NCBI GenBank assembly: GCA_965232605.1
Contig: CBDDQA010000006.1
Coordinates: 318,556 to 382,555, forward strand
DNA length: 64,000 nucleotides
Origin: an uncultured Candidatus Binatia bacterium
GTDB lineage: Bacteria; Desulfobacterota; Binatia; Bin18
Direction: 5' to 3'
Part shown: positions 3,711-58,195 of the stretch, piece by piece
Layout: every line of letters starts with the position of its first letter
Position numbering within the stretch: the stretch's first letter is position 1
Made by a program: the position numbers and the translations under genes
The notes under the pieces: model-generated
What the model was told of the DNA's origin: nothing
The model's database searches: none
The model's input: only the letters and a program-made list of their open reading frames with translations

Positions 3711-4202
3711 TTACAAGAGGACGGACTTGTTCTTATGGCCTGACCACTTCGGCAGATCATCGTGCATATCCATGACCCGCATCCCATAGAAAATATGACA
3801 CGTGGGTGTGAAGCTCGGTGGCACCTGGGGCGGGCGCCCGAAATCAAACAGGGAGGGAAACGCCAGCCACATCTTGCGGCCCTCATCCGCAATCAGCGTT
3901 CCACACACGGCACAGCTGACTTTGCAGGGGAGCATATGCTCATACTGCTGCCACTCGCTATTGTAGAAGCGGAGTTGAGCGATGCCGTGCGTGATGCGCA
4001 CGTGGCGTTTGTGAAAAATGGCGGCCCACTGCATAGGTGCGCCGTGCAGTGCCTGGCAGACCACGCAGTGACAGATTTTCGCGTCAACCGGATCTGCGCT
4101 CACTTCGTATTGGACGGCCTGACAGTAGCATCCGGCACGGTATTTTGCCGTAAAGGTCGTGTCCTCAATCGACGCAAATGCGTCTCCAAATTCTTTTTGC
4201 AT
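3711..4202 (-). CDS. GFA / CENP-V family Zn-binding protein
   Basis: GCYCQAV...ICHCVVCQ...SCAVCGT...PTCHIFY pattern. Confidence 0.85.
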   Translation of the reverse strand: MQKEFGDAFASIEDTTFTAKYRAGCYCQAVQYEVSADPVDAKICHCVVCQALHGAPMQWAAIFHKRHVRITHGIAQLRFYNSEWQQYEHMLPCKVSCAVCGTLIADEGRKMWLAFPSLFDFGRPPQVPPSFTPTCHIFYGMRVMDMHDDLPKWSGHKNKSVLL

Positions 4203-13643: not shown

Positions 13644-13676
13644 GGGTTGTCGTGATGAATCGTCACAGGTTCTCAA

Positions 13677-14876
13677 CTACGCTTCGCTAACGACACGGCT
13701 CGCAGCCTCGATGGCCCCTTCGCCATGGGGGATGTTCAGCGCTTTCAGACCTGCGTCGATCACCGCCAGCACGCCCAAGGTCATGTGCGCGTTCACATGC
13801 CCCATGTGGGCGACGCGGAAGAAACCATGGTAGGCGGGGTCGGAAGGTTCCGCCATGCCCAGTCCGATGCCCAGGGTCACTCCGGCCTTTTTTTCGGTCC
13901 AGCGTCTCAGTTCGGTGGCGTGCGGGGCATCCATGGAAGCCGCAGTGACCGAGTGGGAACGGTCTTGTGGGTCGTTGATGTTGAGACGAATGGCACTGCC
14001 CACTCCCCACGCATAGAACGCGGCCCAGACCGCTCGGCTGAGTTTTGCATGTCTGTCCCAGGCTGCCTCGAGCCCTTCCTCTTCCAGCAGCATGGTCAAG
14101 GCTTCACGCAGTCCCAAAAGATGGTGCGTCGGGGCGGTGCCGAAAAAGTAGTGGTAAAACACTTCCGGGTGGATGCGCGGACGGAGATCCCAGTAAGGCG
14201 TCACCAGGTCCGCTTTCTTCCGAGCTTCGAGCACCCGCTGGTTGAAAAACATGAACCCCAGTCCCGGCGGAGTCATCAGGCCCTTCTGGCTGCCGGCCAC
14301 CATCAGGTCTACGCCCCAGCGATCCATCTCAAAGGGTTCACAGGCCAGGCTGGCCATAGCGTCGACCATATACAGGGCCGGGTGCCCGCAGGAACGGATG
14401 CACTCGCCCAGGGCGGCGAGATCATTTCTGACCGAACTGGCCGTGTCCGTTTGCACGACCAGAATCGCTTTGTAGCGACGGTCCGCATCGGCTCTCAGCT
14501 TGGCTTCTACCCGATTCAGGTCCACCGGAGCCGATTTGCCGAAATCTACCAGGTCGACCTCCACCCCGAGCCGTTCAGCCATGCTGGCCCAGAATGCGAC
14601 GAAGCGGCCCGTCGCCAGGGCCAGCACCCGGTCCCCGCGCGAGAGGATGTTGGTCAGGGCGGCCTCCCAGGTGCCGTGCCCGTTGGCGATGTAGATGGCG
14701 ACTTCCCCGGAACTTCTGGCCACCCGGTTCAAATCCGGAATCATGCCTTCCACCATTTCGTGGAGGGCACCCTCATAGATATTCGGCGCGGCCTGGTGCA
14801 TTGCTTGCAGGACGCGGTCCGGAATCACCGAAGGACCCGGAATAGCGAGATAGTGACGGCCCTGGCTTAATGACAT
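13677..14876 (-). CDS. Class V PLP aminotransferase (serine/alanine-glyoxylate aminotransferase family)
   Basis: LAIPGPSVIPDRV, ANGHGTWEA, VDAMASL, GSQKGLMTPPG, FRVAHMG. Confidence 0.9.
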   Translation of the reverse strand: MSLSQGRHYLAIPGPSVIPDRVLQAMHQAAPNIYEGALHEMVEGMIPDLNRVARSSGEVAIYIANGHGTWEAALTNILSRGDRVLALATGRFVAFWASMAERLGVEVDLVDFGKSAPVDLNRVEAKLRADADRRYKAILVVQTDTASSVRNDLAALGECIRSCGHPALYMVDAMASLACEPFEMDRWGVDLMVAGSQKGLMTPPGLGFMFFNQRVLEARKKADLVTPYWDLRPRIHPEVFYHYFFGTAPTHHLLGLREALTMLLEEEGLEAAWDRHAKLSRAVWAAFYAWGVGSAIRLNINDPQDRSHSVTAASMDAPHATELRRWTEKKAGVTLGIGLGMAEPSDPAYHGFFRVAHMGHVNAHMTLGVLAVIDAGLKALNIPHGEGAIEAASRVVSEA

Positions 14877-15005
14877 AGCATTCCCTGCCCCTCTTTTTCT
14901 CTGTGTTACGCGGCTTCAAACTCCACTCTTTGGACGTGTGAGAGACATGAGTGATAATCCTCATAGTCTAATATGTGTATGTTCCATCCTTACACTCAAA
15001 CGTAA

Positions 15006-15041
15006 GCCGCCGGTTACCGCTTACCCATATTGACCGGCGGC
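15006..15041. other. GC-rich hairpin in intergenic region (possible terminator or regulatory stem)
   Basis: GCCGCCGGT (15006-15014) pairs with ACCGGCGGC (15033-15041). Confidence 0.3.
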
Positions 15042-15292
15042 CCTTCAGCTTTCCAGCCTCCCCGAGATCGCTTCGGGCAGAGAGTATCAGCAAAGCTGAG
15101 AAAGGGGAATTTTCTGAGCCTGAAGAAACTGGCAACGTCCCTCCTTTTTCCTAACGGCACCGATGCACGTGGGATAGTCCTTGACCCCCAATGCCTTCTG
15201 TTTTAGAAGCCATCTGGTTCAAAAATTAAGGCCGGTGATCTGGGAATTCTGGTGGTTAGGGCTTGGTTTCCACTCTGAGTTAGGAGCAACAC

Positions 15293-16330
15293 ATGAAAAC
15301 ATCCATCATGGTCGGCGGAGCGACGTATACCGATACGCAGAGCATGGTTGAGCTTGTCCAACACGCCGAGCGTGTTGGTGTCGATCATGTCTGGTCGGCC
15401 GAGGGGTGGAGCCAGGATGCGGCAACATCCCTTGCCTATCTCGCTGGCCAGACTGAGCGCATCATCCTCGGCACCGGTATTATGCAGATCAGTGCCCGTG
15501 CACCGTCGATGCTGGCGATGACAGCCCTGTCCTTACACGATCTCTCCGGGGGACGCTTCATCTTGGGCTTGGGAACAAGCGGCCCCCAAGTCGTGGAAGG
15601 GTTGCAGGGCGTCCCATTTCACGCGCCGCTTACCCGACTGAAAGAGACCATCGATATTATCCGCATGGCCTTTCGAGGTGAGAAGCTCCGCTATGAAGGC
15701 AAGTTCCATACCCTGCCGCGCCCGGGTGGTGAGGGCAAGGCGCTCCGGCTTGACCATAAGCCCGTGGACATCCCCATCTTTCTGGCAACCCTGGCACCCA
15801 AGGCGCTTGAATATACGGGCGCAGCGGCAGATGGTTGGCTAGGTACCTCATTTTCGCCTGAGTGTCCCGAAGCCCATCTGGCGTATATTCGTAAAGGGGC
15901 AGAAGCAGCCGGACGGAAACTCAGCGACATTTCCCTGCATGCTGGGTGTGTGGTTGCGCTTGGCGACAATGTCGAAGAGCTCATCAACATGCGCAAGCCA
16001 TCTGTCGCCTTTAGTATGGGCGCTATGGGCTCGGCCACAACGAATTTTTACAATGCAGCCTTCCAACGCGCAGGGTTCGAAGACGATGCCAAGGCTATTC
16101 AACAACTATGGCGTAAGGGAAAACGCAAAGAAGCCGCCGAGCGCGTTCCGGACGCTATGGTGACGCAGTTCGGGGCTGTCGGGACCCCAGACATGATTCG
16201 CAAACGCTTTCAAAAATACAAAGACGTGGGAATTGACGGACTCACACTCCGCATTGAAGCCGCGGATCATGCGAAACGCATGGCAGATCTCGAACAGGTT
16301 ATGGATGTGGTTGGCTCGATTGAAAAGTGA
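15293..16330 (+). CDS. LLM class oxidoreductase, F420-dependent type
   Basis: WSAEGWSQDAATSLAYLAGQTERIILGTGIMQISARAP...SGGRFILGLGTSGPQVVEGLQG; AGGAG RBS. Confidence 0.9.
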   Translation: MKTSIMVGGATYTDTQSMVELVQHAERVGVDHVWSAEGWSQDAATSLAYLAGQTERIILGTGIMQISARAPSMLAMTALSLHDLSGGRFILGLGTSGPQVVEGLQGVPFHAPLTRLKETIDIIRMAFRGEKLRYEGKFHTLPRPGGEGKALRLDHKPVDIPIFLATLAPKALEYTGAAADGWLGTSFSPECPEAHLAYIRKGAEAAGRKLSDISLHAGCVVALGDNVEELINMRKPSVAFSMGAMGSATTNFYNAAFQRAGFEDDAKAIQQLWRKGKRKEAAERVPDAMVTQFGAVGTPDMIRKRFQKYKDVGIDGLTLRIEAADHAKRMADLEQVMDVVGSIEK

Positions 16331-16414
16331 ACTGATAACCCCTTTTCCTGAGATGGGACCTTTTATTATCGCGGAAGAATTGTAGACCGGCTATATCTGT
16401 TCAAAGGAGCAAAG

Positions 16415-17575
16415 ATGCACGACAACGACCAAGCCATGCGCGAGTTTGCCAAGACCTTAGCGCTGCCAGAATTTGAAGAAACCGCTTTCACGAAACCACC
16501 ACCGCTGCGAGAGGCGCACGTGGCGATCGTGACCAGCGCCGCGCTCCACCGAATCGGCAGCCCCAAGTGGAAGGTTGAGGATTTCCACTTTGAGACCTTG
16601 CCGAATGACGCCCGCGATCTGAAGCTCGGCCACCTGAGCCCGAACTTTGACCGAGCTGGCTTTGCCGCTGACATGAACGTCGTCTATCCGGTCGACCGCC
16701 TGCAGGAACTCTCCGATCAGGGGGTGATCGGCAGCGTCGCTCATCACCACTACGCCTTCGCCGGCAACCAACCCGAAGGGCTATCCGCGCTGCGCTTGGA
16801 TACTGGTCCGGCCTGCGCTCAAAAGATGCGTGAGGATGGCGTGGATGTTGTCCTGCTCACTCCGGTTTGACCGCTGTGTCCGCGTACCGTGTGTACGCTG
16901 GCCCACATCTTCGAGGCGGCTGGCCTGTCAACGGTCGTGATCTCGCCGATGCGTGATGTTGCCGAACGCATGCGTCCACCACGCGTGCTGTATGCAGAAT
17001 TTCCATTAGGGCTGCCTCTCGGCAAGCCCCGCGACGCGGCCTATCAGCACCGGGTGCTCGAAGCGGCCTTTGCCCTGCTGGAGCGGCCGAGTGGACCGGT
17101 TCTCGTAGACTTCCCGGAGACGATCCAAAGCAGGGGCGGAGAGCCCTTAGCGTGTCCGCTTCCGCCTCGTTATGATCCGAACCTGCACCCAGCCATTGAC
17201 GAAGCACAAGCGTTACGCGCCGCTTACGACCGCGCCGTAGCGAAAACTGGGCGGACCAGTGTCGGCCGGGTGATCAATGCGAATCAGATTCCTGCCGCAC
17301 TCGAAAAGTTCGTACGTATCGCGGAAGGGGAAGCCTGGGATCAGGTTGGGCTCGAGGAGACGACGATGCAGGTCGTGCACGATATCCGGGCCTACTACGA
17401 AGAGCTGGCCTGCGAACTGGTAGCCGACGAGCCCATTCCGGCGTGGAGCGCTGAGCGTTGGTTCTACGACAAAACCGAGGCCGGTCAGGTGTTGCTGACG
17501 GCCCGCCGTACGCTGAAGGAGAGTGGGGCGGACCGTCCAATTTGGTTTTTCATGGCCCCGGGCTCACGCCAGTAA
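16415..17575 (+). CDS. Selenoprotein of the GrdB/PrdB (glycine/proline reductase selenoprotein B) family, 386 aa, Sec at UGA 16868-16870
   Basis: ORFs 16415..16870 and 16889..17575 are in the same frame, separated only by TGA plus 6 sense codons. Joined, they read VLLTPV-U-PLCPRTVCTLAHIFEAAGLSTVV...RPPRVLYAEFPLGLPLGKP, i.e. the UxxC motif. The N-terminal half has DMNVVYPVDRLQEL..GVIGSVA. Confidence 0.85.
16880..16901 (+). promoter_or_regulatory. Candidate bacterial SECIS hairpin
   Basis: Stem GCGTAC (16882-87) / GTACGC (16893-98), loop CGTGT with G as 2nd loop base 19 nt after UGA, extended by CC/GG with a bulged T. Confidence 0.65.
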
Positions 17576-17630
17576 AGCCGGTCGTAGTTGGACATCGGAT
17601 AAAGATTCTTTACAGCGAAAGGAGAGGCAT

Positions 17631-18473
17631 ATGAAGCTGAGTGTGAACTTGCGGAATTGGGGTCCGCATTCGACCGCTGACCTCATGCTCGAATGTGCCC
17701 ATGCGGCCGATGAGTCCGGCCTGGATACGCTCTGGATTAACGAGCATATTGCGATCCCCCCGAATCTCGAAATGCCAGGCGGCTTCCCTGATTTCTCACA
17801 AGGACGGGTTCTCGATCCGTTTGCGACGCTCGCCTTCCTGGCCTCGGCGACACAACGGATCGGCCTCGGTACGGCCGTCATCCTCCTCCCCTACCGTCCC
17901 CCGCTGCCAACGGCAAAACTCGTCGCAACCGTCCATGAACTGTCGGGCGAGCGTTTGCGTTTGGGCGTAGGCGTGGGCTGGATGAAAGAGGAATTTCAGG
18001 CCCTCGGGGTCGACTACCGTCGGCGCGGGGCAATGACGAACGACACCTTGGCCTTTATCCGCCAGTGTTTTGATGGGGACGATATAACTGAAGCGAATGG
18101 GCAACCCTTTTTATTTCGGCCTCGCCCCGCCTGCCCCCCAATTTATGTTGGGGGTGCACCACCGCATAGCCTTGAACGCACGGTAAAATACGGTCACGGC
18201 TGGATTCCAGCTGGTGTCGAGGCGGAAGCCCTCAAGCCCGATATTGAAAAGCTGCAACAGATGGCCCGGGAGGCGGGCCGCGCGGCGCTTGAAGTGGTTG
18301 CCATGAAAACCTTGCCTATCGACGATCCACCAAAGGCGATCGACTACGCGAAAGGCTTTGCAGAGGTAGGCGTGGCCCATCTTGTCCATACCCAGGGGTA
18401 CGAGAGTGCGGCTGCATATCGACAGAACATCGCTATTCTCGAAGAAAGAATTCGACCCGCTTTAGCCGACTAA
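17631..18473 (+). CDS. LLM class oxidoreductase, F420-dependent type (Rv2161c-like)
   Basis: GGAGAGG RBS then MKLSVNLRNWG; WINEHIAIP, LDPFATLAFLASATQRIGLGTAV, RLRLGVGVGWMKEEF. Confidence 0.9.
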   Translation: MKLSVNLRNWGPHSTADLMLECAHAADESGLDTLWINEHIAIPPNLEMPGGFPDFSQGRVLDPFATLAFLASATQRIGLGTAVILLPYRPPLPTAKLVATVHELSGERLRLGVGVGWMKEEFQALGVDYRRRGAMTNDTLAFIRQCFDGDDITEANGQPFLFRPRPACPPIYVGGAPPHSLERTVKYGHGWIPAGVEAEALKPDIEKLQQMAREAGRAALEVVAMKTLPIDDPPKAIDYAKGFAEVGVAHLVHTQGYESAAAYRQNIAILEERIRPALAD

Positions 18474-18504
18474 GGAAAAGGTCCTGGGAGAGCCGGGAAT
18501 ACGT

Positions 18505-19701
18505 CTAAATCACCCCATCCTCTTTCAGCCGTGTTAGCTCTTCTTCCGAAAGATCCAATAACTGCCCGTACACCAGCTCATTATGCTGGCCGAGGGTCGG
18601 GCTGGGGGAGTCAATCGACGGCTGTTCACCGTTGAAGCGCCACGGTGGGCCTGGGATGGGTACGGTGCCGGCCATGGGATGGCTGATATCTTGGAGTATC
18701 CCGCGCGTACGTAAATGCGGCTCTGAGAGCAATTCGGCCACTTCTTTCACCGTGCCACAGGTTATGCCGACCGTTGAACAGCGTTCCATAACGTCCTGTT
18801 TGGTATGCTGCCTCGTCCAGGTACTGACAATGTCATCGAGTTCTTCCCAGCGCTTTGAACGTTCAGCTTTTGTGGCGAATTTTGGGTCGTCGCTCAGCTC
18901 CTGGCGATCCATGAGCGTACACAAGGCTTGCCAGCGTTGGTCGTCTAGCACGAGCAGCAGGACATAGCCGTCTTGGGTAGGATAGCAATCGTAAGGCGAA
19001 AAAATATGACCAGGCACGCTATTGCCGGCCCGTTCATAGGTCTCGCCTTGCCCCAGGTAGGCGGCAATGAGGCTTGCCATTGGACCAATCGCGGACTCAT
19101 ACAACGAAGTTTCCATGAACACACCCTCTCCGGTGCGGTCGCGTTGGCGCAAGGCCACGATAATCCCGGTGGCAAAGTGAATCCCGCCCAGAATATCCAT
19201 GATCGGGGTCCCGGCTTTTGTGGGCGGACCGTCCGGAGCCCCGGTCGCACTCATGAGCCCGGACATGGCCTGAACAATAGGATCAAAAGCGGGATAGGCG
19301 CTATACGGACCCGACTGCCCATAGCCTGTGCTCGAAGCGTAGACGAGTCGTGGGTTAATCTGCTTGAGGACGTCCCAGCCCAAGCCCAGCCGATCCATGA
19401 CGCCGACCGTAAAATTTTCAACCACCACGTCGGCATCTTGCACCAGTTGTTTGAAGAGCTCTTGGCCCCGTGGGGCTTTGAGGTTGAGGGTGACGCCTTT
19501 TTTATTGGAATTCAACATCACAAAGGGATAACTCTCGTTTGTGACTCCAGGGATGGGAAAAATCGTGCGGGCTCGCTCGCCTAGCTCGGGCGGCTCGATT
19601 TTGATGACTTCCGCGCCAAAGAATCCTAATACTAAGGCAGCATACGGCCCATTATAGAAATGAGTCAGGTCGAGCACCCGAACATCGTCTAAAGCTTTCA
19701 T
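18505..19701 (-). CDS. CaiB/BaiF family (class III) CoA-transferase
   Basis: LDDVRVLDLTHFYNGPYA...GAEVIKIEPP...NSNKKGVTLNLK...ADVVVENF. Confidence 0.95.
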   Translation of the reverse strand: MKALDDVRVLDLTHFYNGPYAALVLGFFGAEVIKIEPPELGERARTIFPIPGVTNESYPFVMLNSNKKGVTLNLKAPRGQELFKQLVQDADVVVENFTVGVMDRLGLGWDVLKQINPRLVYASSTGYGQSGPYSAYPAFDPIVQAMSGLMSATGAPDGPPTKAGTPIMDILGGIHFATGIIVALRQRDRTGEGVFMETSLYESAIGPMASLIAAYLGQGETYERAGNSVPGHIFSPYDCYPTQDGYVLLLVLDDQRWQALCTLMDRQELSDDPKFATKAERSKRWEELDDIVSTWTRQHTKQDVMERCSTVGITCGTVKEVAELLSEPHLRTRGILQDISHPMAGTVPIPGPPWRFNGEQPSIDSPSPTLGQHNELVYGQLLDLSEEELTRLKEDGVI

Positions 19702-19795
19702 ACTGCGCTACTCCTCCGTTTCTCGTATGCGAGCAGCTATCAGCCGAACACGGGAAAGGCAAGAAAGGCTAAGCTAATATGGGGGAAAGTAGGCT

Positions 19796-19821
19796 CAGAT
19801 TCGACTTATCCACCCAAGCCA
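19796..19821 (+). repeat. Dispersed 26-bp repeat, copy 1
   Basis: CAGATTCGACTTATCCACCCAAGCCA; 24/26 identical to 27119-27144. Confidence 0.6.
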
Positions 19822-19982
19822 TGGAGCAGTGAGACTTTCCCATAGGAAGGCATGCCCGGTCACAGCGGCGTCAAAAATGAGCCGTGCTTCGTTTGCAACC
19901 AGGACAGCTTCCTATCGGAGAGTCGATAAGATATATCTAGGCAACCTGAAAACCGACGCAAGATCAGAGAGGATGGAATACC

Positions 19983-21644
19983 ATGACGAACACGACTCAA
20001 CAGCCACACAGAAACGGATCGCTTGAATACTGTGACGCCGTCATCATCGGAGCGGGCGTTGGCGGCATGTACGCCTTACACCACCTGCGCGAAATGGGCC
20101 TGTCAGTGCGCGTGTACGACGGCGCCGGCGGTATCGGCGGAACCTGGTGGTGGAACCGCTACCCCGGTGCACGGGTCGATGGTCCGGGTAGTCCTTTCTA
20201 CTGCTACACCTTCTCGGAAGAGCTGGTGCGGGAGTGGGACTGGGCCGAGACCCAGCCAAGCCAAGAGCAGGTACTGGACTACCTTGAGCACGTCGCCGAC
20301 CGGCTCGACCTGCGCCGCGACATCCAACTTGAGACCTGGATACGCGACGCCCGTTATGACGAAGCGGTCCAGCGCTGGACCGTTGAGACCAGCGGTGGCG
20401 AGCGTGTCTCGGCTCAGTTTTTGATCTGCGCAGTCGGCACCCTCTCGGCGGCCCACAAACCCGACTTCCCCGGACTCGACGATTTTACCGGTGAGTGCTA
20501 CCACACCGGCCGCTGGCCGCAGGAACCTGTTTCTTTTGAGGGCAAACGCGTTGGCGTGATCGGGACTGGCTCCTCGGGGGTCCAGGCAGTTCCTGTCATC
20601 GCTCGCGAGGCCGCCCATCTGACGGTGTTCCAGCGCACACCGCAATACAGCATCCCGGCCCGGAACCGTCCCCTCGAGCCTGAGTTAATGCAGTACGCCC
20701 GCGAAAACTGGGACGAAGTCCGGGCGAAAATGAACGCCCATCCCGTCGGCATGCCGTTCGAGACCACCTCGCGCTTGGGCGCCGAGGACACCCCCGAACA
20801 ACGCCAGGCGCTCTACGAGGATCTGTGGCAGAAGGGCAGCTTCAACCTCCTTTTCGGCAGCTATGCCGACCTCCTGACCAATAAAGAAACCAACCGCACG
20901 CTGGCCGATTTTATACGCGGCAAGATTCGCGAGTGCGTGAAGGACCCCGAGATTGCCGAGAAACTGATGCCGGACTACTATCTGGGCACCAAGCGCCAGA
21001 TCCTCGATAATGGCTACTACGAAACCTTCAATCGCGACAACGTCACTTTAGTAGACTTACGCGAAGACCCAATTCAGACGGTCACTGCAACAGGTGTACG
21101 GACTGAGACCGGCGACCATCCGCTCGATATGATCGTGATGGCAACGGGCTTCGACGCCATCAGCGGCACTATGCTGCGCCTCAACCCCAAGGGGCGGGGC
21201 GGCGTCGACCTCAAGGAGAAGTGGAGCAGTCGCTTCGATAACTATCTTGGTATGGCGATTGCCGACTTTCCCAATCTGTTTATGATCCATGGCCCAGGCT
21301 CACCCTCAGTGCTCTATAACATGCCGCTCGGTGCCGAGCGCGAGACGGAGTGGATCGGCAACTGCGTGCAATATCTACGCGCACGGGGTCTGGGTGCCAT
21401 CGAGGCGACGCCGGACGCCGAGAAAGACTGGGACAAAGAGGTCAACGAACTCGCCAACGAGACGCTCTACCCCCTCACTGACTCCTGGTACACAGGCGCC
21501 AACATCCCAGGCAAGCCCCGTCAGTTCTGCGTCCACCTGGGTGGCCCGCTGTACTTTCAGCGCATCTCTGAGGCTGCCGCCAAGGGCTACGAGGGGTTCG
21601 TGTTTGAGGAGGAGAACAACGTGGACGTCTCCGCCGCGTCCTGA
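19983..21644 (+). CDS. Baeyer-Villiger monooxygenase (cyclohexanone/phenylacetone monooxygenase family)
   Basis: GAGVGG, GGTWWWNRYPGARVD, fingerprint FTGECYHTGRWP, GTGSSGVQ, FQRTP. Confidence 0.95.
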   Translation: MTNTTQQPHRNGSLEYCDAVIIGAGVGGMYALHHLREMGLSVRVYDGAGGIGGTWWWNRYPGARVDGPGSPFYCYTFSEELVREWDWAETQPSQEQVLDYLEHVADRLDLRRDIQLETWIRDARYDEAVQRWTVETSGGERVSAQFLICAVGTLSAAHKPDFPGLDDFTGECYHTGRWPQEPVSFEGKRVGVIGTGSSGVQAVPVIAREAAHLTVFQRTPQYSIPARNRPLEPELMQYARENWDEVRAKMNAHPVGMPFETTSRLGAEDTPEQRQALYEDLWQKGSFNLLFGSYADLLTNKETNRTLADFIRGKIRECVKDPEIAEKLMPDYYLGTKRQILDNGYYETFNRDNVTLVDLREDPIQTVTATGVRTETGDHPLDMIVMATGFDAISGTMLRLNPKGRGGVDLKEKWSSRFDNYLGMAIADFPNLFMIHGPGSPSVLYNMPLGAERETEWIGNCVQYLRARGLGAIEATPDAEKDWDKEVNELANETLYPLTDSWYTGANIPGKPRQFCVHLGGPLYFQRISEAAAKGYEGFVFEEENNVDVSAAS

Positions 21645-21777
21645 GCGCCTCAGAACATCGACCCGGGCGCTACCCTATACCGATCCGCTTTTGTGGAAGG
21701 CCGGCGGTATGCTGGCGTGGCATATCGGTCGTTCGGCAGTCCATTCCAAGCACGGGTATGCCGGAGGGTAGAGACTG

Positions 21778-22161
21778 ATGAATAGGAAACATGATGCGGG
21801 GGTCGCGAAGCATATCGGTACATACAGCGATGCGGTAGAGATTGATTCCGCACAACGCATCCTCTATGTGTCCGGTACCCCCGGTATTGACGCGGACAGT
21901 GGCCACTTGCCGGACGACTTCGCCGAGCAAGCAGACCTCGCCTGGCGTAACGTCGTGAACATTCTCAAGCGGGCGGATATGGGTGTTGAAGATATCGTCA
22001 AACTGACCCAGCATCTTATTCGGCGGGAAGACTTGAAAATCTATCGAGAAATACGATCACGGTATTTGGGGACGTGCGCTCCAGCCTCAATGCTCACCCT
22101 ACTCCCCGGTCTCGTTTGGCCGAATATGCTGATCGAGCTAGAGGTCGTGGCCGCGAAATGA
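21778..22161 (+). CDS. RidA/YjgF family protein
   Basis: YSDAV, LYVSG.PG, QA..AWRNV..IL, PASML, LIELEVVAA. Confidence 0.9.
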   Translation: MNRKHDAGVAKHIGTYSDAVEIDSAQRILYVSGTPGIDADSGHLPDDFAEQADLAWRNVVNILKRADMGVEDIVKLTQHLIRREDLKIYREIRSRYLGTCAPASMLTLLPGLVWPNMLIELEVVAAK

Positions 22162-22241
22162 AGCCAGGAAGGCACTGTCAAGGTATCGAAACGAAGCACG
22201 AACCTCACGGCGTGTGAGATCAGTTGAGGCGTCTCCTTACG

Positions 22242-22517
22242 CTACACCCCTAACCAATACAGTCCAATGAGGATGGCACAGACCGAGACGGCCCACACTT
22301 CAAACGCTATTCGTAGTGGCAATGGCGCCGTTCTGAGTTCCATGAAATCAAGAAAGACGAAACGGATTTTGACAAAGGTGATAATCAAAATGGCGGCGGT
22401 CGCGTAGTGAGACTGCTCCCCAAAACCGAACCCGTGCCCGAACTGCCACGACAGCATCGTCGCCACGATCAAGCCGACCCAAATACCGGTCACTCTGGAT
22501 TGAAGCCAAGCTGCCAT
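22242..22517 (-). CDS. Prokaryotic cytochrome c oxidase subunit IV-like membrane protein
   Basis: 91 aa, three hydrophobic segments, VKIRFVFLDFMELR motif. Confidence 0.75.
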   Translation of the reverse strand: MAAWLQSRVTGIWVGLIVATMLSWQFGHGFGFGEQSHYATAAILIITFVKIRFVFLDFMELRTAPLPLRIAFEVWAVSVCAILIGLYWLGV

Positions 22518-25661: not shown

Positions 25662-25744
25662 CAGCGATGAGCGCGTCGGCAAACGCCATACCGGAAGCCC
25701 CGGCTCCGACAATAAGACAGTCCGTCTCGACCACGCTCGTGATC
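25662..25744 (-). pseudogene. 5' remnant of an FAD/NAD(P)-dependent oxidoreductase paralogous to 28632..30047
   Basis: Reads ITSVVETDCLIVGAGASGMAFADALIA and then breaks; near-identical to 29963-30046. Confidence 0.8.
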
Positions 25745-26349: not shown

Positions 26350-27048
26350 TTACTCCCTTTCGGTTTCGCCTGCCCGTACGGCCGCTTGCCGCCTCAGAGA
26401 AGGCGGGCCCGTCGATAACCGCGCTTCATCCGTGGGCACGAAAGCGCCGCCGATTTTATCCAGCAGAATCTGTGCGTTCATTTCGATGCCTTTGCCGCCC
26501 GCAGCTTTCATCGCGGGAAAGTGTTCGAGCAAATTCTCCGCAGCGCCCCGGTAAACGTGCGATGGGTCGCCAGGCCAGGGCGGTAATGCCGCAATTTGTT
26601 CTGCATTGAGGTCCTTCAGGAAATGCCGCGCCTGCGGCTCCATCCGGACAAGGTTCGTCAGGCCTGCAAATTCTTTGTACGCGGCCACCTGTGACACGAG
26701 AATCCTTTTCTCGTAGAACGGATGGTCACCGAACAGCACCGTCCAGCACGCTTTGCAATAGAAACGGGTGGTATCAGCCGACTCATAATTCATGAATGCG
26801 CCCAGTTTCTCTTCGCCCGTCATGATGCAAAAGTCGTTCGGCAGCCAGCAGCAGTCCGCACACAGATTGTGTGGATATTCCGGGCCGCCGCGCTTCGTCG
26901 CATACCACAGGGCCGAGAGGCAATCGTGGCAACAACATTCGTGTCGGAAAAGCTCTTTGTTTGCGGGGAAGTCGATACGAACGGAACCGCATTTGCACCG
27001 AATAGTCGCCATGGTTTTTCTCGTGGGTTGGCCTTTCGAATCTGGCAA
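26350..27048 (-). CDS. Cys-rich GFA/DUF6151-like protein
   Basis: IRCKCG...ECCCHDC...RFYCKACWT pattern; start may be MATIRC near 27012. Confidence 0.6.
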   Translation of the reverse strand: MPDSKGQPTRKTMATIRCKCGSVRIDFPANKELFRHECCCHDCLSALWYATKRGGPEYPHNLCADCCWLPNDFCIMTGEEKLGAFMNYESADTTRFYCKACWTVLFGDHPFYEKRILVSQVAAYKEFAGLTNLVRMEPQARHFLKDLNAEQIAALPPWPGDPSHVYRGAAENLLEHFPAMKAAGGKGIEMNAQILLDKIGGAFVPTDEARLSTGPPSLRRQAAVRAGETERE

Positions 27049-27118: not shown

Positions 27119-27144
27119 CAGACTCGACGTATCCACCCAAGCCA
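27119..27144 (+). repeat. Dispersed 26-bp repeat, copy 2
   Basis: CAGACTCGACGTATCCACCCAAGCCA; see 19796-19821. Confidence 0.6.
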
Positions 27145-28631: not shown

Positions 28632-30047
28632 CTATCCTATCATTGACGACGCTTCGGCCAGCAGCCGTTCGGCATTTTTTAACGCCGGTTCGGCGTTGGC
28701 CTGCCAGCGATCAAGGGCCGTCTTCATGCGCGGTTCACTCAGGTGATTTTCCATGCCGCGGGTGAGATTCAGGCGCGAGCTTGCCTGCCACGCCGTGATG
28801 TCCGGCTCGGTCGCATGCAGCGCGGAAGTATTGAGCATACCGTGCATAAACCGGACCCAATCGAGCGGAACGTCGACCTGGGCGACGGGTGGGCAGAGCC
28901 GGTTCTTCTCGGCGTCGTCGCGGCCGGTGGACTCGATAAACCCGAGCATGGCCGCGTAATACGTCTGGACCGCGCCAATGAGGGATTGAATCACGATGCG
29001 GCCCGGCTCGAAAATCGGCCGGACGGGTCGCTTGTGGTAGCCGCAGGCCGTGCAATCCACATGCACGTGGCCGCGCTCAGTCGGAATCTCCCCTTTCTCC
29101 AGGATGATGCGGTCGGCGCCCAGACTTTGCACGCGACCCAGGCGGACCACGTTTTCGATCTGCATCAACGCTTCGCGTTCGGCGGCGTTCAGGATGGCGC
29201 CCCGAAACATGGTCGGCCTGATCCGCGGCTCGAAGCGTTGCAGTTGGCCGCACGCTTCGAGCCGAGGCCAAAGCGCATCTGCCGTCTCGGCCTGGGCGAG
29301 GGCCTCGACGCCAAGCGATAATCCGTTGACGGTCTCGGTGACCAGATCGAGCGGCTGGAGCGTCAGGCGGTCCAGCAACCAGGCTTCGCGGGGTCTAATC
29401 CACCTGATCCTGTCGGGCTCTTCACCGTTGTCGAGCAGCCAGTTGCAGGCATCCATAGCGGTCTTGCCTGCTCCAATGATGGTATAGCCGGTCGGACGCT
29501 CAGCCAGATTGGTCAGCTCACCGAGGGGAATGAATGTGACATCCGGGTCAACCGCAAACGACGGCGTATGCGTTGCCGGGACCGTCACCTCGAGATAGGT
29601 CGTATCTACAATCTTGCGGCGCACGCGTACCGTCGTACCGGCGCCGGTCACGCGTGAGGTGAACGCGTGCGCGTTTGCCCAGTCCCCGACGTAGTCACAC
29701 ATACCGAAGAAGCGCACCTGTCCCGACGGCAGCAGCACCTCGTCGAGCACCCGCTGGTAATAGGCACATATCTCCGCGGCCGTCGAGCGCTCGTAGAATC
29801 CGGCGTTCGGGCCGGTTTGGTCGATCGAATCCGTGCCCAGCATCCGCGAGTTGACCCCGTAGCAGGCCGAGGCGTGGTGAATACGCACGAACGGGTACGC
29901 ATCGTTCCAATGGCCACCCGGACAGTGGCGCCGCTCGACCATCACGACGTCAGCATCACATTCAGCGATGAGCGCGTCGGCAAACGCCATACCGGAAGCC
30001 CCGGCTCCGACGATAAGATAGTCCGTCTCAATCTCGCTCAGGATCAC
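28632..30047 (-). CDS. FAD/NAD(P)-dependent oxidoreductase
   Basis: DYLIVGAGASGMAFADAL, GGHWNDAYPFVRIH, IIGAGKTAMDAC. Confidence 0.85.
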   Translation of the reverse strand: MILSEIETDYLIVGAGASGMAFADALIAECDADVVMVERRHCPGGHWNDAYPFVRIHHASACYGVNSRMLGTDSIDQTGPNAGFYERSTAAEICAYYQRVLDEVLLPSGQVRFFGMCDYVGDWANAHAFTSRVTGAGTTVRVRRKIVDTTYLEVTVPATHTPSFAVDPDVTFIPLGELTNLAERPTGYTIIGAGKTAMDACNWLLDNGEEPDRIRWIRPREAWLLDRLTLQPLDLVTETVNGLSLGVEALAQAETADALWPRLEACGQLQRFEPRIRPTMFRGAILNAAEREALMQIENVVRLGRVQSLGADRIILEKGEIPTERGHVHVDCTACGYHKRPVRPIFEPGRIVIQSLIGAVQTYYAAMLGFIESTGRDDAEKNRLCPPVAQVDVPLDWVRFMHGMLNTSALHATEPDITAWQASSRLNLTRGMENHLSEPRMKTALDRWQANAEPALKNAERLLAEASSMIG

Positions 30048-53296: not shown

Positions 53297-53393
53297 GCCT
53301 AGCGTGAAACGCTATAGGGCACCCAGCGCCGAATTAGGGCAGGCCCCAAGGGTCGGTAGTGCATTAGTTTGAAAATATAATAAATTATGCAAT

Positions 53394-53483
53394 GCGGTCT
53401 ACTCGGAAGACCTCAGCCCGCAGCAGGACTACGACGGCCTGCGGGTCATCAACCCGTTTCTGGAAGAATCGGAAACCCCATGA
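53394..53483 (+). pseudogene. C-terminal remnant of a PIN-domain toxin
   Basis: AVYSEDLSPQQDYDGLRVINPFLEESETP*; matches the LYSED...DG..VINPF ending of PIN proteins and the remnant at 58082-58195. Confidence 0.75.
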
Positions 53484-53544
53484 CCACTTGTGTCCTGCGT
53501 TCCATGTGATATCCGCTCCCTGCCGCCAAGGGATACGCAGAAAG

Positions 53545-55518
53545 ATGAGCGCCAGCGACCTGAACTGGATTGCCAACTACATCTGGGGCATTGCCGACGA
53601 CGTGCTGCGCGACCTGTACGTGCGCGGCAAGTACCGCGACGTAATCCTGCCCATGACCGTGCTGCGCCGGCTGGACGCGGTGCTGGAAGACAGCAAGCGG
53701 GCCGTCCTTGACATGAAGGCCAGCCTCGACGCGGCGGGCGTGGTCGAACAGGACCCGGCCCTGCGCCAGGCCGCAGAACAGGCATTCTACAACACCTCGA
53801 AGTTCACCCTGCGTGACCTCAGAGCCCGCGCCAGCCGCCAGCAGTTGACCGCCGACTTTGAAGCCTACCTGGACGGGTTCTCGCCCAACGTGCAGGACAT
53901 CCTCGACAACTTCGAGTTCCGCAACCAGATTCTGCGTCTGTCCAAGGCCGACGCCCTGGGCACGCTGATCGAGAAGCTCACCACGCCCGACATCAACCTG
54001 AGCCCGGCTCCGGTCCTGAACCCCGACGGCTCGGTCAAACACCCCGGTCTCGACAACCACGGCATGGGCTCGATCTTCGAGGAACTGGTGCGCCGCTTCA
54101 ACGAGGAGAACAACGAAGAGGCCGGCGAACACTGGACCCCACGCGACGCCGTGACCCTCATGGCCAGGCTCGTCTTCCTGCCCATTGCCGACGCCATCAA
54201 ATCCGGCACCTATCTGCTCTACGACGGCGCCTGCGGCACCGGCGGCATGCTGACCGTGGCCGAGGACACCCTGCGGCAACTCGCCACCGAATACGACAAA
54301 GACGTGTCCACCCACCTCTACGGCCAGGAGATCAACGCCGAGACCTACGCCATCTGCACGGCCGATCTGCTGCTCAAGGGCGAGGGCGAAGCCGCCGACA
54401 ACATCGTGGGCGGCCCGGAGCACTCCACCCTGGCCAACGACGCCTTCGCCGCCCGCGAGTTCGACTTCATGCTGTCCAACCCGCCCTACGGCAAGAGCTG
54501 GAAGACCGACCTGGAGCGTATGGGCGGCAAGACCGACCTGCACGACCCGCGTTTCGTGATCGAGCACGCCGGCGATCCCGAGTATTCGCTGGTCACCCGC
54601 TCCAGCGACGGCCAGATGCTGTTCCTGGCCAACAAGCTGTCCAAGATGAAGCAGGACACCCCGCTCGGCAGCCGTATTGCCGAGGTCCACAACGGCAGTT
54701 CCCTGTTCACCGGCGACGCCGGCCAGGGCGAGAGCAATATCCGCCGCTGGATCATCGAGAACGACTGGCTGGAAGCCATCGTCGCCCTGCCGCTCAATAT
54801 GTTCTACAACACCGGCATCGCCACCTACGTCTGGGTGCTGACCAACCGCAAACCCGCACACCGCCAGGGCAAGGTTCAATTGATCGACGCCACCCAGTGG
54901 TACCGGCCCTTGCGCAAGAACCTGGGCAAGAAGAACTGCGAGCTGGGCGAGGAGGACATCGCCCGCATCTGCAACACTTTTCTGGCTTTCAAGGAGAGCG
55001 AGCAGAGCAAAATCTTCGACAATGCCGCCTTCGGCTACTGGAAGGTCACGGTCGAGCGGCCGCTGCGCCTCAAAGGCATCGACCCCAACCGCGCCTGCAA
55101 GGCTGCCGAAATCAAGAAGCTCAAAGAGACTGGCGAGCGGAGCGAAAGCGCTCCGCCCGTCATCAAGAAAATTCACAAGCGGGGCACCAAGGCCGACCCG
55201 TTGCGCGGCCGGTTCGTCACCACCATCAACGGCAAACCTGCCGTGGTGGAATACGAGCCCGACACCGACCTGCGCGACACCGAGCAGATTCCATTGCAGG
55301 AGGTAGGCGGTATCGAATCCTTTTTGCGCCGCGAGGTTCTGCCCTACGCCCCTGACGCCTGGTATCAGTCCGACAGCGTGAAGGTCGGCTACGAGATCAG
55401 CTTCACCCGCTATTTCTACAAGCCGCAGCCCCTGCGGACGCTGGACGAGATTCGGGCCGACATCCTGTCACTGGAGGAAGAGACCGAGGGGCTGCTCGAC
55501 CAGATCATCCGGGCATAG
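53545..55518 (+). CDS. hsdM: Type I restriction-modification methyltransferase subunit
   Basis: LNWIANYIWGIADDVLRD, GEHWTPRD, YDGACGTGGML, NPPY (m6A), GYEISFTRYFY. Confidence 0.97.
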   Translation: MSASDLNWIANYIWGIADDVLRDLYVRGKYRDVILPMTVLRRLDAVLEDSKRAVLDMKASLDAAGVVEQDPALRQAAEQAFYNTSKFTLRDLRARASRQQLTADFEAYLDGFSPNVQDILDNFEFRNQILRLSKADALGTLIEKLTTPDINLSPAPVLNPDGSVKHPGLDNHGMGSIFEELVRRFNEENNEEAGEHWTPRDAVTLMARLVFLPIADAIKSGTYLLYDGACGTGGMLTVAEDTLRQLATEYDKDVSTHLYGQEINAETYAICTADLLLKGEGEAADNIVGGPEHSTLANDAFAAREFDFMLSNPPYGKSWKTDLERMGGKTDLHDPRFVIEHAGDPEYSLVTRSSDGQMLFLANKLSKMKQDTPLGSRIAEVHNGSSLFTGDAGQGESNIRRWIIENDWLEAIVALPLNMFYNTGIATYVWVLTNRKPAHRQGKVQLIDATQWYRPLRKNLGKKNCELGEEDIARICNTFLAFKESEQSKIFDNAAFGYWKVTVERPLRLKGIDPNRACKAAEIKKLKETGERSESAPPVIKKIHKRGTKADPLRGRFVTTINGKPAVVEYEPDTDLRDTEQIPLQEVGGIESFLRREVLPYAPDAWYQSDSVKVGYEISFTRYFYKPQPLRTLDEIRADILSLEEETEGLLDQIIRA

Positions 55519-55578
55519 CCGTCCCGCCAGCACTGAACTATAGTTGACAAAGTGCACACATTGGATGACTATCCGTCC

Positions 55579-55863
55579 ATGGAGGTACGCTTCGATTGGA
55601 GTACGGAGAAGAACCAACAACTCGTTGAACAGCGAGGAATCTCCTTCGAGCGTGTCGTCACCGCAATCGAACAAGGTGGCCTGGTGAACGTGCTGGAACA
55701 CCCTAATCAGGAGCGGTACCCAGGGCAGTCGATCTACGTGGTAGACATCGAAGAATACATCTACCTCGTCCCGTTCGTGAGCGAGGCGGACGGCTCACGG
55801 TTCCTGAAGACGATCATCCCCAGCCGGAAGGCGACGCGTGACTATCACAGGAGGCAACCATGA
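55579..55863 (+). CDS. BrnT/DUF497-family RNase toxin
   Basis: FDWSTEKNQQLVEQRGISFE...LKTIIPSRKAT; 4-bp overlap with the antitoxin. Confidence 0.85.
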   Translation: MEVRFDWSTEKNQQLVEQRGISFERVVTAIEQGGLVNVLEHPNQERYPGQSIYVVDIEEYIYLVPFVSEADGSRFLKTIIPSRKATRDYHRRQP

Positions 55864-56138
55864 TGAGCAGCAAAATGAGTACCGAAGAGAGGGAAATTCT
55901 GGAGAAGTTCGAGCGCGGCGAGTTGCGACCTGCTTCCAACGTCGAGCACGAGCTCGTACAGGCCCGTCAAGCGGCTCGCAATACGTTTAACAAGACCCGG
56001 CGAGTCAACCTGCGGGTGACCGAACGTGACTTCAGTCTCGCCCACGCACGGGCACGGGAGGAGGGCATTCCGTATCAGACGCTTTTGTCGAGCGTCATCC
56101 ACAAATACCTGTCGGGTCGGCTGGTCGAGAAGAGATAG
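55860..56138 (+). CDS. CopG/BrnA-like ribbon-helix-helix antitoxin
   Basis: KTRRVNLRV...AREEGIPYQTLLSSVIHKYLSGRL. Confidence 0.85.
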   Translation: MMSSKMSTEEREILEKFERGELRPASNVEHELVQARQAARNTFNKTRRVNLRVTERDFSLAHARAREEGIPYQTLLSSVIHKYLSGRLVEKR

Positions 56139-56170
56139 GAGACCGACCAAGTCACACGGAGGAAGCGCAA

Positions 56171-56362
56171 ATGAGACCGACCGAGATCATCTTCGAGGTC
56201 ACGGAGGCCGTGGAAGGCGGGCACGACGCCCGAGCGCTTGGGTACAGCGTTTTCACCCAGGGCGATGATTGGGACGACCTGAAAGACATGGTGAAGGACG
56301 CGGTGCTCTGCCATTTCGACGAAGACAGCGCACCAAGAGTCATCAGGCTCCATCATCGCTAA
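56171..56362 (+). CDS. HicB-like antitoxin, C-terminally clipped
   Basis: EIIFEVTEAVEGGHDARALGYSVFTQGDDWDDLKDMVKDAVLCHFD...IRLH. Confidence 0.7.
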   Translation: MRPTEIIFEVTEAVEGGHDARALGYSVFTQGDDWDDLKDMVKDAVLCHFDEDSAPRVIRLHHR

Positions 56363-56366
56363 CGGC

Positions 56367-56420
56367 GCAGCATTTCTCGATCTCTCCAAGCGTGAAGTAT
56401 TCGAAACGCTCTTTGACTGA
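56367..56420 (+). pseudogene. Probable C-terminal remnant of a HicA toxin
   Basis: AAFLDLSKREVFETLFD* resembles HicA C-termini and directly follows the clipped hicB. Confidence 0.5.
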
Positions 56421-56423
56421 CAA

Positions 56424-57848
56424 ATGGCCGCCGAACTGAAACCCTACCCTGCCTATAAGGATTCCGGCGTACCGTGGCTGGGGGAGGTGCCGGCGCATTG
56501 GGAGGTGTTACCGCTTTGCTCTGTTGCTACGCCTAAGTCCGTTACAGGCCAACAGCACCGTGAGCTACTGTCGGTGTACCTGGACCGAGGTGTTATTCGT
56601 TTTTCTGAGGTCGAAGAGAAGCGTACAAACGTGACGAGCGAAGATCTGTCTAAATATCAAGCCGTCGATCCTGGTGATTTCGTCCTGAACAATCAGCAAG
56701 CCTGGCGCGGCTCTGTTGGAGTGTCCAACCTTTCCGGGATCGTTAGTCCCGCTTACCTAGTGCTTTCGTTGAGTCCGAGGCTTCATACTGGTTTCGCAAA
56801 CCTCCTCTTCCGAGAACGGGTAATGGTTACCCAATATCTCGTCTGCTCACGAGGTGTTGGTTCTATCCAAAGGAATCTCTACTGGCCACATCTCAAAAGG
56901 ATAGCATTTCCTGTCCCACCCCTCCCAGAACAAACCGCCATCGTCCGCTTCCTTGACCACGCCGACCGACGTATCCAGCGCTACATCCGCGCGAAGGAGA
57001 AGCTGATTGCGCTGCTGGAGGAGCAGAAGCAGGCCATCATCCACCAGGCCGTCACCGGCCAGCTCGACGTCCGCACCGGCCAGCCCTACCCGGCCTACAA
57101 GCCCTCCGGCGTGGAGTGGCTGGGAGAGGTGCCGGCGCACTGGGACCTACGACCGGCAAAATGGTACTTCCGAGAAGTAGATGAGCGTTCTGAAACTGGC
57201 TTGGAGGAACTGCTATCCGTGTCTCACATTACCGGAGTGACGCCACGAAGTGAGAAGAATGTCACGATGTTTAAGGCGGAATCGAACGTCGGACACAAAC
57301 TGTGTAAGCCCGGCGATCTTGTCATCAATACGATGTGGGCCTGGATGGCCGCCCTGGGCGTTTCCAGACAGGCCGGGATAATCAGCCCATCGTATGCTGT
57401 CTACCGGCCACACTCTTCTTCGAGACTGTTTGGCGACTACGCTGACCTCTTGCTGCGTACAACAACATACAAGAACGAATATATCTGCCGATCAACGGGT
57501 ATCCGCTCGTCGCGACTGAGGCTGTACCCGGAGGAATTCCTCCGTATCAAGTTGCTATGCCCTCCACTTGAAGAACAGCATGCTATTGTCGAGTTCGTAA
57601 GCAAAGAATCGACGAACGCACGGCGTTCTATTGATATCACGCACAGCCAAATCGACCTGCTCCACGAATACCGCATCCGCCTGATCGCCGATGTGGTCAC
57701 CGGTAAGCTCGACGTGCGCGAGGCGGCGGCCGCGCTGCCCGAAGTCGATCCTCTCGCTGCCGAAGACACCCTGGACGACACCCTCGACACCGACGCCCCT
57801 ACCGGACCGATCCCACGCGATGCCGGAGTGTTGCCCGTTAGTCAATGA
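56424..57848 (+). CDS. hsdS: Type I R-M specificity subunit
   Basis: Repeated PYPAYK(D/P)SGVxWLGEVPAHW conserved regions, PPLPEQ / PPLEEQ, two TRDs, LIADVVTGKLDVR. Confidence 0.96.
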   Translation: MAAELKPYPAYKDSGVPWLGEVPAHWEVLPLCSVATPKSVTGQQHRELLSVYLDRGVIRFSEVEEKRTNVTSEDLSKYQAVDPGDFVLNNQQAWRGSVGVSNLSGIVSPAYLVLSLSPRLHTGFANLLFRERVMVTQYLVCSRGVGSIQRNLYWPHLKRIAFPVPPLPEQTAIVRFLDHADRRIQRYIRAKEKLIALLEEQKQAIIHQAVTGQLDVRTGQPYPAYKPSGVEWLGEVPAHWDLRPAKWYFREVDERSETGLEELLSVSHITGVTPRSEKNVTMFKAESNVGHKLCKPGDLVINTMWAWMAALGVSRQAGIISPSYAVYRPHSSSRLFGDYADLLLRTTTYKNEYICRSTGIRSSRLRLYPEEFLRIKLLCPPLEEQHAIVEFVSKESTNARRSIDITHSQIDLLHEYRIRLIADVVTGKLDVREAAAALPEVDPLAAEDTLDDTLDTDAPTGPIPRDAGVLPVSQ

Positions 57849-57889
57849 GACCCTATGCTGTGTGACACAGAAATTGTGAGGCTGTGCCC

Positions 57890-58081: not shown

Positions 58082-58195
58082 GCAGCGCGTGCCCTGGGCT
58101 GCGACGTAGTCTATTCCGAGGAGTTCAGCGAGGAACAGGACTACGATGGCCTTCGGGTCATAAACCCGTTCACAGACCAAGCAGACCCACAATGA
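58078..58195 (+). pseudogene. PIN-domain toxin with large internal deletion
   Basis: GTG start overlapping the antitoxin stop, then shifted frame AARALGCDVVYSEEFSEEQDYDGLRVINPFTDQADPQ*. Confidence 0.8.

Follow-up and report, generated by a model that had tools for sequence, protein, structure and literature searches.

The stretch of DNA analysed here, a 64-kb window from a sponge-associated Candidatus Binatia bacterium, encodes at 16415-17575 on the forward strand a PrdB-like protein whose active-site residue is specified by an in-frame TGA and whose gene lies between two genes for luciferase-like (LLM class) oxidoreductases, LLM1 and LLM2. On balance we lean towards a joint reading in which the product is a genuine selenoprotein, belongs to a widespread stand-alone subfamily of GrdB/PrdB proteins and acts as a pyruvoyl-independent reductase of a small substrate, with an LLM context that is local. 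An earlier note on this DNA had also recognized a selenoprotein gene here, and had proposed that its selenocysteine (Sec) nucleophile is coupled to flavin- or F420-dependent LLM enzymes as a module; the comparative data bear out the first of these proposals and speak against the second.

The reading frame comprises 386 codons and a TAA stop (17573-17575), and its sole interruption is a TGA at codon 152 (16868-16870), the opening residue of a U-P-L-C motif. We surveyed one genome per species, found 383 loci that encode relatives, and used the best 80 of these 383 for codon counts. The codon aligned to Sec152 was TGA at 74 of the 80 loci and TGT at six, always within [U/C]-P-L-C, and Sec was kept in >90% of species in the surveyed family loci. 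The hosts of the 80 loci are Binatia, Pseudomonadales (SAR92, Porticoccaceae, Halieaceae and Azotimanducaceae), Acidimicrobiia and other Actinomycetota, Chloroflexota and Myxococcota. Full-length database homologs (~395 amino acids) carry Cys at the aligned position, and many 227-residue entries are Sec orthologs that gene callers have split at the TGA.

A candidate selenocysteine insertion sequence (SECIS) hairpin begins 11 nt 3' of the UGA (16882-16898); it has a 6-bp stem (GCGUAC/GUACGC) and an apical loop, CGUGU, that contains G. Its fold energy by itself is unremarkable (z = 0.12), so the case for Sec and for the SECIS rests on comparative data. Pairing is intact in 99.5% of cells across 69 distinct Sec-form sequences, with compensatory stem changes from UA to CG in 22 of the 69 and from AU to GC in one, and no shuffle reached the observed covariation score. 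The hairpin convinces despite the conserved peptide beneath it because Cys forms let it decay and distant Sec paralogs rebuild it: in six Cys-form genes the PLCPRTVCTLAH peptide is unchanged, but only 3-5 of the 6 pairs are left and all six have GUU in place of the loop GUG, and Sec paralogs at 31-33% identity use different stems (UCAGAC/GUCUGA and GGGUGC/GCGCCC) that still form 6/6 pairs at equal spacing. As judged from these alignments, UGA152 is read as Sec, aided by the conserved SECIS element 11 nt downstream.

At that same distance (31-33% identity) we observed a second stand-alone PrdB-like Sec subfamily with the motif U-P-[VI]-C and a SECIS of its own. Its genes, at L014 15667-, L017 11336-, L018 16889- and L042 7184-8464 (L numbers are our labels for surveyed loci), are found in marine Gammaproteobacteria, at a distance of a few kb from the gene of the main family, and those in L014, L017 and L018 adjoin two CaiB-type CoA-transferase genes. 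Two Prx-like (AhpC-TSA) genes with an in-frame stop in W-U-P-[YF]-C lie on L081 (1276-1950 and 12269-12670), a contig of a relative with 83% identity; both are split by gene callers, DUF772 transposase genes lie close by, and from their sequence they are probably further selenoprotein genes. The window itself yielded one further selenoprotein candidate (minus strand, 14775), which was unconvincing.

The protein combines a PrdB-like alpha/beta core, carrying the U-P-L-C redox centre, with a helical C-terminal domain that is exclusive to its family, as judged from profile matches and a structure model. Residues 30-222 (16502-17080) align with positions 26-218 of 238 in the NCBIfam PrdB model TIGR04483 (118.3 bits), and the U152-P-L-C155 tetrapeptide reproduces the U-x-x-C active-site motif of PrdB. 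The Pfam GRDB profile (PF07355) was matched at 38 bits (E = 1.5e-9), above its gathering threshold of 22 bits, only over positions 200-345 of 347, ending at Sec. A search of 5.8 billion proteins returned >1000 homologs; 'D-proline reductase (dithiol) PrdB' is a label that JGI gives to homologs. The AlphaFold2 model of a 61%-identical Cys homolog (pLDDT 91.6, pTM 0.91) predicts an alpha/beta core with C-x-x-C between a strand and a helix, followed by a long loop that bears an invariant Cys and then by seven helices. A second PrdB-like gene in the window, hinted at by a 27-nt repeat (3988-4014), was unsupported by tblastn and Pfam.

The C-terminal region (residues 223-386; 17081-17572) consists of a linker and a helical domain of ~128 residues: of the ~165 residues beyond the PrdB match, those from AIDEAQ on are helical in the model. 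The region is conserved in every full-length homolog, and the most conserved stretch of the whole family, D[IV]R[AST]YYEE[LA], which the locus search picked automatically, lies within it (DIRAYYEE; 17381-17404). Y327, Y328 and E329 are nearly invariant in the family alignment, and C247 (the invariant linker Cys; 17153-17155), P250, E263, W349 and G357 are invariant or nearly so. Searched alone, the region found 216 clusters among 1.84 billion representatives, all of this family (full-length proteins or post-TGA fragments), and it matched no Pfam model at E up to 1 and no NCBIfam model at E up to 5. Because it is conserved family-wide and restricted to the family, the extension described in the earlier note is a dedicated domain of the subfamily and no accident of this gene. 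Two outliers, P0156 (1019 residues without Pfam domains) and P0210 (seemingly chimeric, with an unusual combination of domains), offered no Rosetta-stone clue.

No conserved partner gene accompanies the selenoprotein gene. Pfam searches of all window open reading frames (ORFs) of at least 200 residues, and of 55 smaller ORFs lying mostly outside called genes, found no thioredoxin, glutaredoxin, thioredoxin reductase, GrdA, GrdE or PrdA, in agreement with what had been read from the letters alone. The 133 immediate neighbours at 68 non-Binatia homolog loci had no dominant family (AMP-binding, 8 of 133; then DUF2855 and HTH_67, 4 each), and PrdA, GrdA, thioredoxin and thioredoxin reductase were not among the 25 most frequent. 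When neighbours from -4 to +4 were clustered, and those at -1/+1 assigned by Pfam, again no frequent partner turned up; the families that recur are generic catabolic ones (AMP-binding, SDR, sulfatase, ECH, PhyH, DUF2855 and HTH_67). Since no prdA, grdA, grdE or thioredoxin gene occurs in the window or next to the 68 homologs, the gene is a stand-alone, non-Stickland one, as had been proposed.

By analogy with characterized relatives, the protein is most likely a pyruvoyl-independent U-x-x-C reductase of a small substrate. Its selenolate would attack an electrophilic carbon or heteroatom of that substrate, as in PrdB and GrdB; Cys155 (16877-16879), the putative resolving cysteine, which occupies an invariant column of the family alignment, would resolve the adduct to a selenenylsulfide, and the latter would be re-reduced by thioredoxin or another general dithiol system of the cell. 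Because no pyruvoyl proprotein accompanies the gene, the substrate would probably need no Schiff base for its activation, like the substrates of the GrdH/GrdI (betaine) and FarB/FarE (fluoroacetate) branches, which have a good leaving group at the alpha carbon; the GrdI and FarE subunits are not proproteins (PMC10838667). GrdH/GrdI offers the precedent of a pyruvoyl-independent member acting on an onium substrate (PMC10838667). FarB/FarE of Synergistota, for which cleavage of the fluoroacetate C-F bond by a GrdB-like enzyme was proposed from operon and transcriptome data, is likewise a Sec enzyme of the GrdB superfamily with proposed C-X cleavage at the alpha carbon without a pyruvoyl group; unlike the present family, FarB is anaerobic, works as one of two subunits, feeds GrdA/GrdCD and is reported to lack the CxxC cysteines, whereas U-x-x-C is kept here (PMC10838667). 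The conserved C-terminal domain would probably supply a substrate-binding lid, the role of the second subunit in Stickland enzymes, and one may speculate that its conserved acidic and aromatic residues suit a cationic ligand.

A more specific version of this proposal, which we regard as quite improbable, holds that the family is a single-polypeptide, pyruvoyl-independent selenoenzyme of aerobes that cleaves a C-N+, C-S+ or C-halogen bond alpha to the carboxyl or thioester group of an abundant marine or sponge osmolyte (for example, a betaine-type onium compound). E263, Y327-Y328-E329-E330 and W349 would then form a cation-binding lid, and the Binatia LLMs would act on the same class of substrate. 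In a variant, self-processing at the invariant linker Cys247 would yield a pyruvoyl group, and the protein would then be PrdB fused with a miniature PrdA.

Several observations weigh against the joint reading that we favour. The proposed mechanism is transferred from enzymes whose profiles the protein matches with weak scores (118 versus a cutoff of 300 for PrdB, and 47 versus 65 for the GrdB/F/H/PrdB subfamily), and the fold model is that of a 61%-identical Cys homolog, not of the window protein itself. The 64-kb window contains no Sec machinery by tRNA, Rfam or Pfam search, and no thioredoxin gene was seen within these 64 kb of the genome. LLM genes adjoin the selenoprotein gene at 10 of 11 Binatia loci, in three different configurations, and on contig L042 of a marine gammaproteobacterium the gene right after the Sec paralog is an LLM1 homolog with 60% identity.

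One alternative, which we consider unlikely, is that the protein is a general thiol-disulfide or peroxide redox protein of thioredoxin/glutaredoxin type, which reduces disulfides, sulfoxides or peroxides and not a C-X bond of a metabolite. Its U/C-P-x-C motif does sit after a beta-strand and before a helix, and a profile search of PDB sequences returned only glutaredoxin active-site segments (CPYC), at a weak E of ~0.7; selenoprotein surveys place the family with thiol-dependent redox proteins (PMC1088965), and the family occurs in aerobes as a gene without fixed metabolic neighbours. However, the homology spans the entire length of PrdB and extends well beyond the motif. A Foldseek comparison of the model with the PDB gave no hit below E = 1e-3, thioredoxin-fold entries included (the best was photocobilin, TM 0.26-0.30). 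Many polar residues outside the motif are conserved (S75, D79, R80, N88, H112, E167, R190 and Q211) and, with the highly conserved extra domain, suggest a specific ligand pocket, and Sec retention at the observed level is typical of nucleophilic catalysis.

A second alternative concerns the LLM neighbours. LLM1 (15293-16330; 345 residues; Pfam PF00296, Bac_luciferase, 251 bits), a luciferase-like flavin/deazaflavin oxidoreductase gene, the selenoprotein gene and LLM2 (17631-18473; 280 residues; PF00296, 155 bits), a TIGR03619-type LLM oxidoreductase gene, are all on the plus strand, separated by 84 and 55 bp as previously described. Opposite-strand genes border the trio: a class-V aminotransferase gene on the LLM1 side (13677-14876, minus strand), with a divergent intergenic region (14877-15292) between the two, and a convergent CaiB-type family III CoA-transferase gene (18505-19701, minus strand; PF02515, 414 bits) that ends the co-oriented run. 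The selenoprotein gene has an AAAGGAG ribosome-binding site (16403-16409, plus strand), at which homology with shuffled relatives starts exactly, and LLM2 starts at an ATG preceded by AAAGGAGAGG, with an overlapping alternative GTG start at 17523 in the ORF listing. A weak sigma-70-like site upstream of LLM1 (14931-14958) matches at 9 of 12 positions, and such matches are no commoner than in shuffled sequence. Neither gap holds a terminator-like site, and fragmented contigs from sponge metatranscriptomes cover the selenoprotein gene, one of them linking its 3' end to LLM1 in an alternative gene order. The short gaps, the good ribosome-binding sites, the lack of terminator-like sites within the gaps and the metatranscriptome contigs make it probable that the three genes are co-transcribed in this genome.

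The 'F420-type' label that both LLMs had been given is backed by a model score for LLM2 only, which makes LLM2 a putative F420 enzyme. LLM2 exceeds the cutoff of the F420-LLM model TIGR03619 (Rv2161c-like; 196.2 versus 166.9 bits), while LLM1, with TIGR03559 (Rv3520c-like) as its best NCBIfam model, stays under the cutoff (302.7 versus 335 bits), and three close orthologs of LLM1 are named 'LLM class flavin-dependent oxidoreductase' by NCBI. Marine Alphaproteobacteria, and other groups as well, commonly have LLM1 orthologs at 65-78% identity, and a look-up found no record of its exact sequence. No F420 biosynthesis gene (cofC/D/E/G/H or fbiA/B/C) appeared in the window Pfam results, which cover ORFs of at least 200 residues in full and smaller ones as lists of matched families.

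The alternative built on this arrangement holds that, in Binatia only, the three genes of the trio make up a functional module for catabolism or detoxification, with a flavin- or F420-dependent LLM enzyme that makes or consumes the substrate of the Sec enzyme or re-reduces that enzyme; we consider such a lineage-limited functional link doubtful. In its favour are the compact co-oriented trio with opposite-strand borders and terminator-free gaps, the metatranscriptome contig that joins the 3' end of the selenoprotein gene with LLM1, and the L042 pair. LLM1-Sec-LLM2, the order of the window, recurs in L001 and L005, where the trio shifts as one block; LLM1 lies downstream instead (X-Sec-LLM1) in L002, L004, L006, L007, L082 and L083, and a third LLM lies upstream (followed by Sec-Y) in L003 and L008. 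To score adjacency, we ran tblastn with each of the eight LLMs of the window and counted any LLM within 600 bp. By this measure the 10 of 11 Binatia-clade loci stand against 1 of 72 other loci, and at that single non-Binatia locus the LLM is on the opposite strand. Bac_luciferase is outside the 25 most frequent neighbour families at the 68 non-Binatia loci, and no GRDB gene lies within 5 kb of any of four LLM1 orthologs sampled on long contigs of other lineages (67-77% identity), which are flanked by amidases, transporters, aminotransferases or other LLMs.

Within Binatia, too, adjacency carries little weight. LLMs make up 8 of the ~50 window genes and ~12-16% of local genes, a share at which ~22-30% of genes are expected to have an LLM neighbour by chance; if four independent arrangements are assumed, the nominal p is ~0.04 at best, and two of the four share LLM1. 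The L081 relative has no adjacent LLM despite its 83% identity, no known chemistry ties LLM enzymes to selenol or thiol recycling, and the metatranscriptome contigs may include DNA. Because the region is LLM-rich, its gene order is shuffled and L081 lacks an adjacent LLM, adjacency among Binatia is weak evidence for coupling. The survey of homolog neighbourhoods that the earlier note had called for thus shows no LLM enrichment outside the Binatia clade, and a family-wide Sec-LLM module is refuted. The sandwich is specific to a single sponge-associated lineage, in which it is a local trait of a catabolic region rich in LLMs and highly rearranged, and no obligate coupling; the module idea describes a lineage-limited arrangement at best.

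It is highly improbable that the protein is an ordinary B subunit of D-proline (or glycine/betaine) reductase with the genes for its PrdA/GrdE, GrdA and PrdC partners at other places in the genome. PrdB is its best NCBIfam match, as in the JGI labels of its homologs, and the partner evidence from this genome is that of the window. Like PrdB of Clostridium sticklandii and C. difficile, it is homologous over nearly the whole PrdB length and has Sec at the equivalent position of U-x-x-C. Unlike PrdB, it reaches 118 bits against the equivalog cutoff of 300, is 386 and not ~240 residues long, carries the 165-residue extra domain, and has neither a prdA pyruvoyl proprotein nor prdC/D/E/F nearby. It shares with GrdB/GrdF/GrdH (TIGR01918, PF07355) a GRDB domain matched up to Sec, but it lacks their N-terminal half (~200 residues), has instead an unrelated extension at the C-terminus, scores 47.1 against the TIGR01918 subfamily cutoff of 65.45 bits with only profile positions 271-406 of 431 matched, and comes without grdA, grdC, grdD, grdE or grdI. 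A partner gene lies next to none of ~80 homologs, in contrast to the operons that prd and grd genes form in organisms with characterized systems (PMC13188914), and the hosts (SAR92, Halieaceae, Acidimicrobiia and Binatia) are aerobic heterotrophs.

That the TGA is a real stop or a disabling mutation, leaving two ORFs or a pseudogene as the 151- and 228-residue products of gene callers would imply, is excluded for practical purposes by the recurrence of the same TGA in 74 of 80 species of several phyla with both halves conserved, by Cys at that codon in orthologs, and by a covarying hairpin that decays where TGA has become TGT.

The family is not undescribed, as had been supposed. The Sargasso Sea and Global Ocean Sampling (GOS) surveys of Zhang and Gladyshev (2005, 2008) show PrdB to be one of the commonest selenoprotein families in the surface ocean (PMC1088965, PMC2398784), and the GOS entry 'proline reductase PrdB' gives pfam07355 and a UxxC motif, with 235 Sec versus 110 Cys sequences (PMC2398784, Table 2). 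The window protein belongs to this catalogued marine UxxC family, to which we match it by Pfam family, motif and habitat rather than by sequence comparison with the GOS entries: both have more Sec than Cys forms and are abundant in oxic marine settings, and the homologs found here derive from Tara, SAR92, Porticoccaceae and Halieaceae genomes. A passage in PMC9321204, citing PMC5537630, assigns GrdH-like matches in marine metagenome datasets mostly to Proteobacteria. The surveys call the marine family PrdB and do not take up a C-terminal domain, the lack of PrdA or gene contexts; relative to them and to current annotation, what is new is that the family fails the PrdB and GrdB/F/H cutoffs, has its own domain and stands alone.

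The family is widespread in mostly aerobic marine, freshwater, soil and sponge-associated bacteria, and its members go under the annotations 'D-proline reductase' or 'glycine/sarcosine/betaine reductase B', enzymes of Stickland fermentation that aerobic hosts almost certainly do not have. Its own C-terminal domain, the absence of a pyruvoyl partner, Sec retention in >90% of species and a well-defined SECIS together correct a common mis-annotation and make the family a clean target for biochemistry. Were its substrate an osmolyte or an organohalogen, marine carbon and nitrogen cycling would gain a reductive step that depends on selenium and tolerates oxygen.

The window is 90-97% identical in nucleotide sequence to long-read Candidatus Binatia metagenome-assembled genomes, its sequence words are present in sponge metagenomes and sponge-host runs, and an independent 9.6-kb contig matches 13708-23339 with one mismatch. 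By Pfam, its eight LLM genes lie at 77-1093 and, by start position, at 15293, 17631, 27281, 32157, 42659, 44180 and 45571. Other catabolic genes encode a Baeyer-Villiger monooxygenase, a P450, two Rieske oxygenases, an acyl-CoA dehydrogenase, PhyH, a thiolase and CaiB, together with two amidohydrolases (amidohydrolase_2), an epoxide hydrolase and a molybdopterin oxidoreductase, so that the window presents itself as an oxygenase-rich expansion of paralogs in a sponge-associated Binatia genome.

Between 12000 and 30100, the window differs from L001-L007 by shuffling of order at the scale of single genes, with relative orientation kept, at 90-97% identity. Homology blocks (for example 15275-16386, 16403-17588, 17595-18497, 18488-19729 and 13658-14887) begin at the ribosome-binding site and finish 13-25 nt past the stop codon, and a recurrent breakpoint between related genomes lies at 14945/14946, upstream of LLM1. 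Integron-like or repeat-mediated cassette exchange was considered as the cause and set aside: there was no integrase, no attC-like repeat family and no common breakpoint motif, and a 26-nt repeat occurred only twice. Spacers at the rearranged sites (11175-11444 in L002/L006/L007, 1358-1658 in L082, 5651-5897 in L005 and 939-1276 in L007) contain gene remnants, among them a ~190-bp C-terminal fragment of an acyl-CoA dehydrogenase-like gene (...GGAGYMEEFEISRMYRDSRVSRIYAGSSEVMKI...), a C-terminal fragment of a second gene, and a 338-nt 5' fragment of the selenoprotein gene that adjoins LLM2 in L007. These remnants point to repeated illegitimate recombination or deletion.

A contig from another sample of the same study (run X4) joins 14945 to 22267 with 13 nt of filler, and therefore represents a strain variant without the 7.3-kb block 14946-22266, which holds LLM1, the selenoprotein gene, LLM2, CaiB and the Baeyer-Villiger monooxygenase gene. 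An 83-nt direct repeat (92% identity) occurs at 25662-25744 and 29963-30045, one copy forming the 5' end of an NAD-binding gene (28632-30047, minus strand); in L002 the two flanks meet across the repeat, and this suggests that the ends of paralogous genes recombined to produce the rearrangement. The 26-nt near-identical element CAGAYTCGACKTATCCACCCAAGCCA is found at 19796-19821 and 27119-27144, with no such pair expected by chance, upstream of two minus-strand genes (CaiB and the gene at 26350-27048); it has no exact match in the related loci retrieved and may be a shared regulatory site. Towards the end of the window, a type I restriction-modification system (53392-63010) comprises HsdM (53392-55518), HsdS (56424-57848) and HsdR (60005-63010), and between hsdS and hsdR lies a DarT/DarG-like toxin-antitoxin pair, a DarT ADP-ribosyltransferase (58267-58932) followed by a macro-domain protein (58929-60008).

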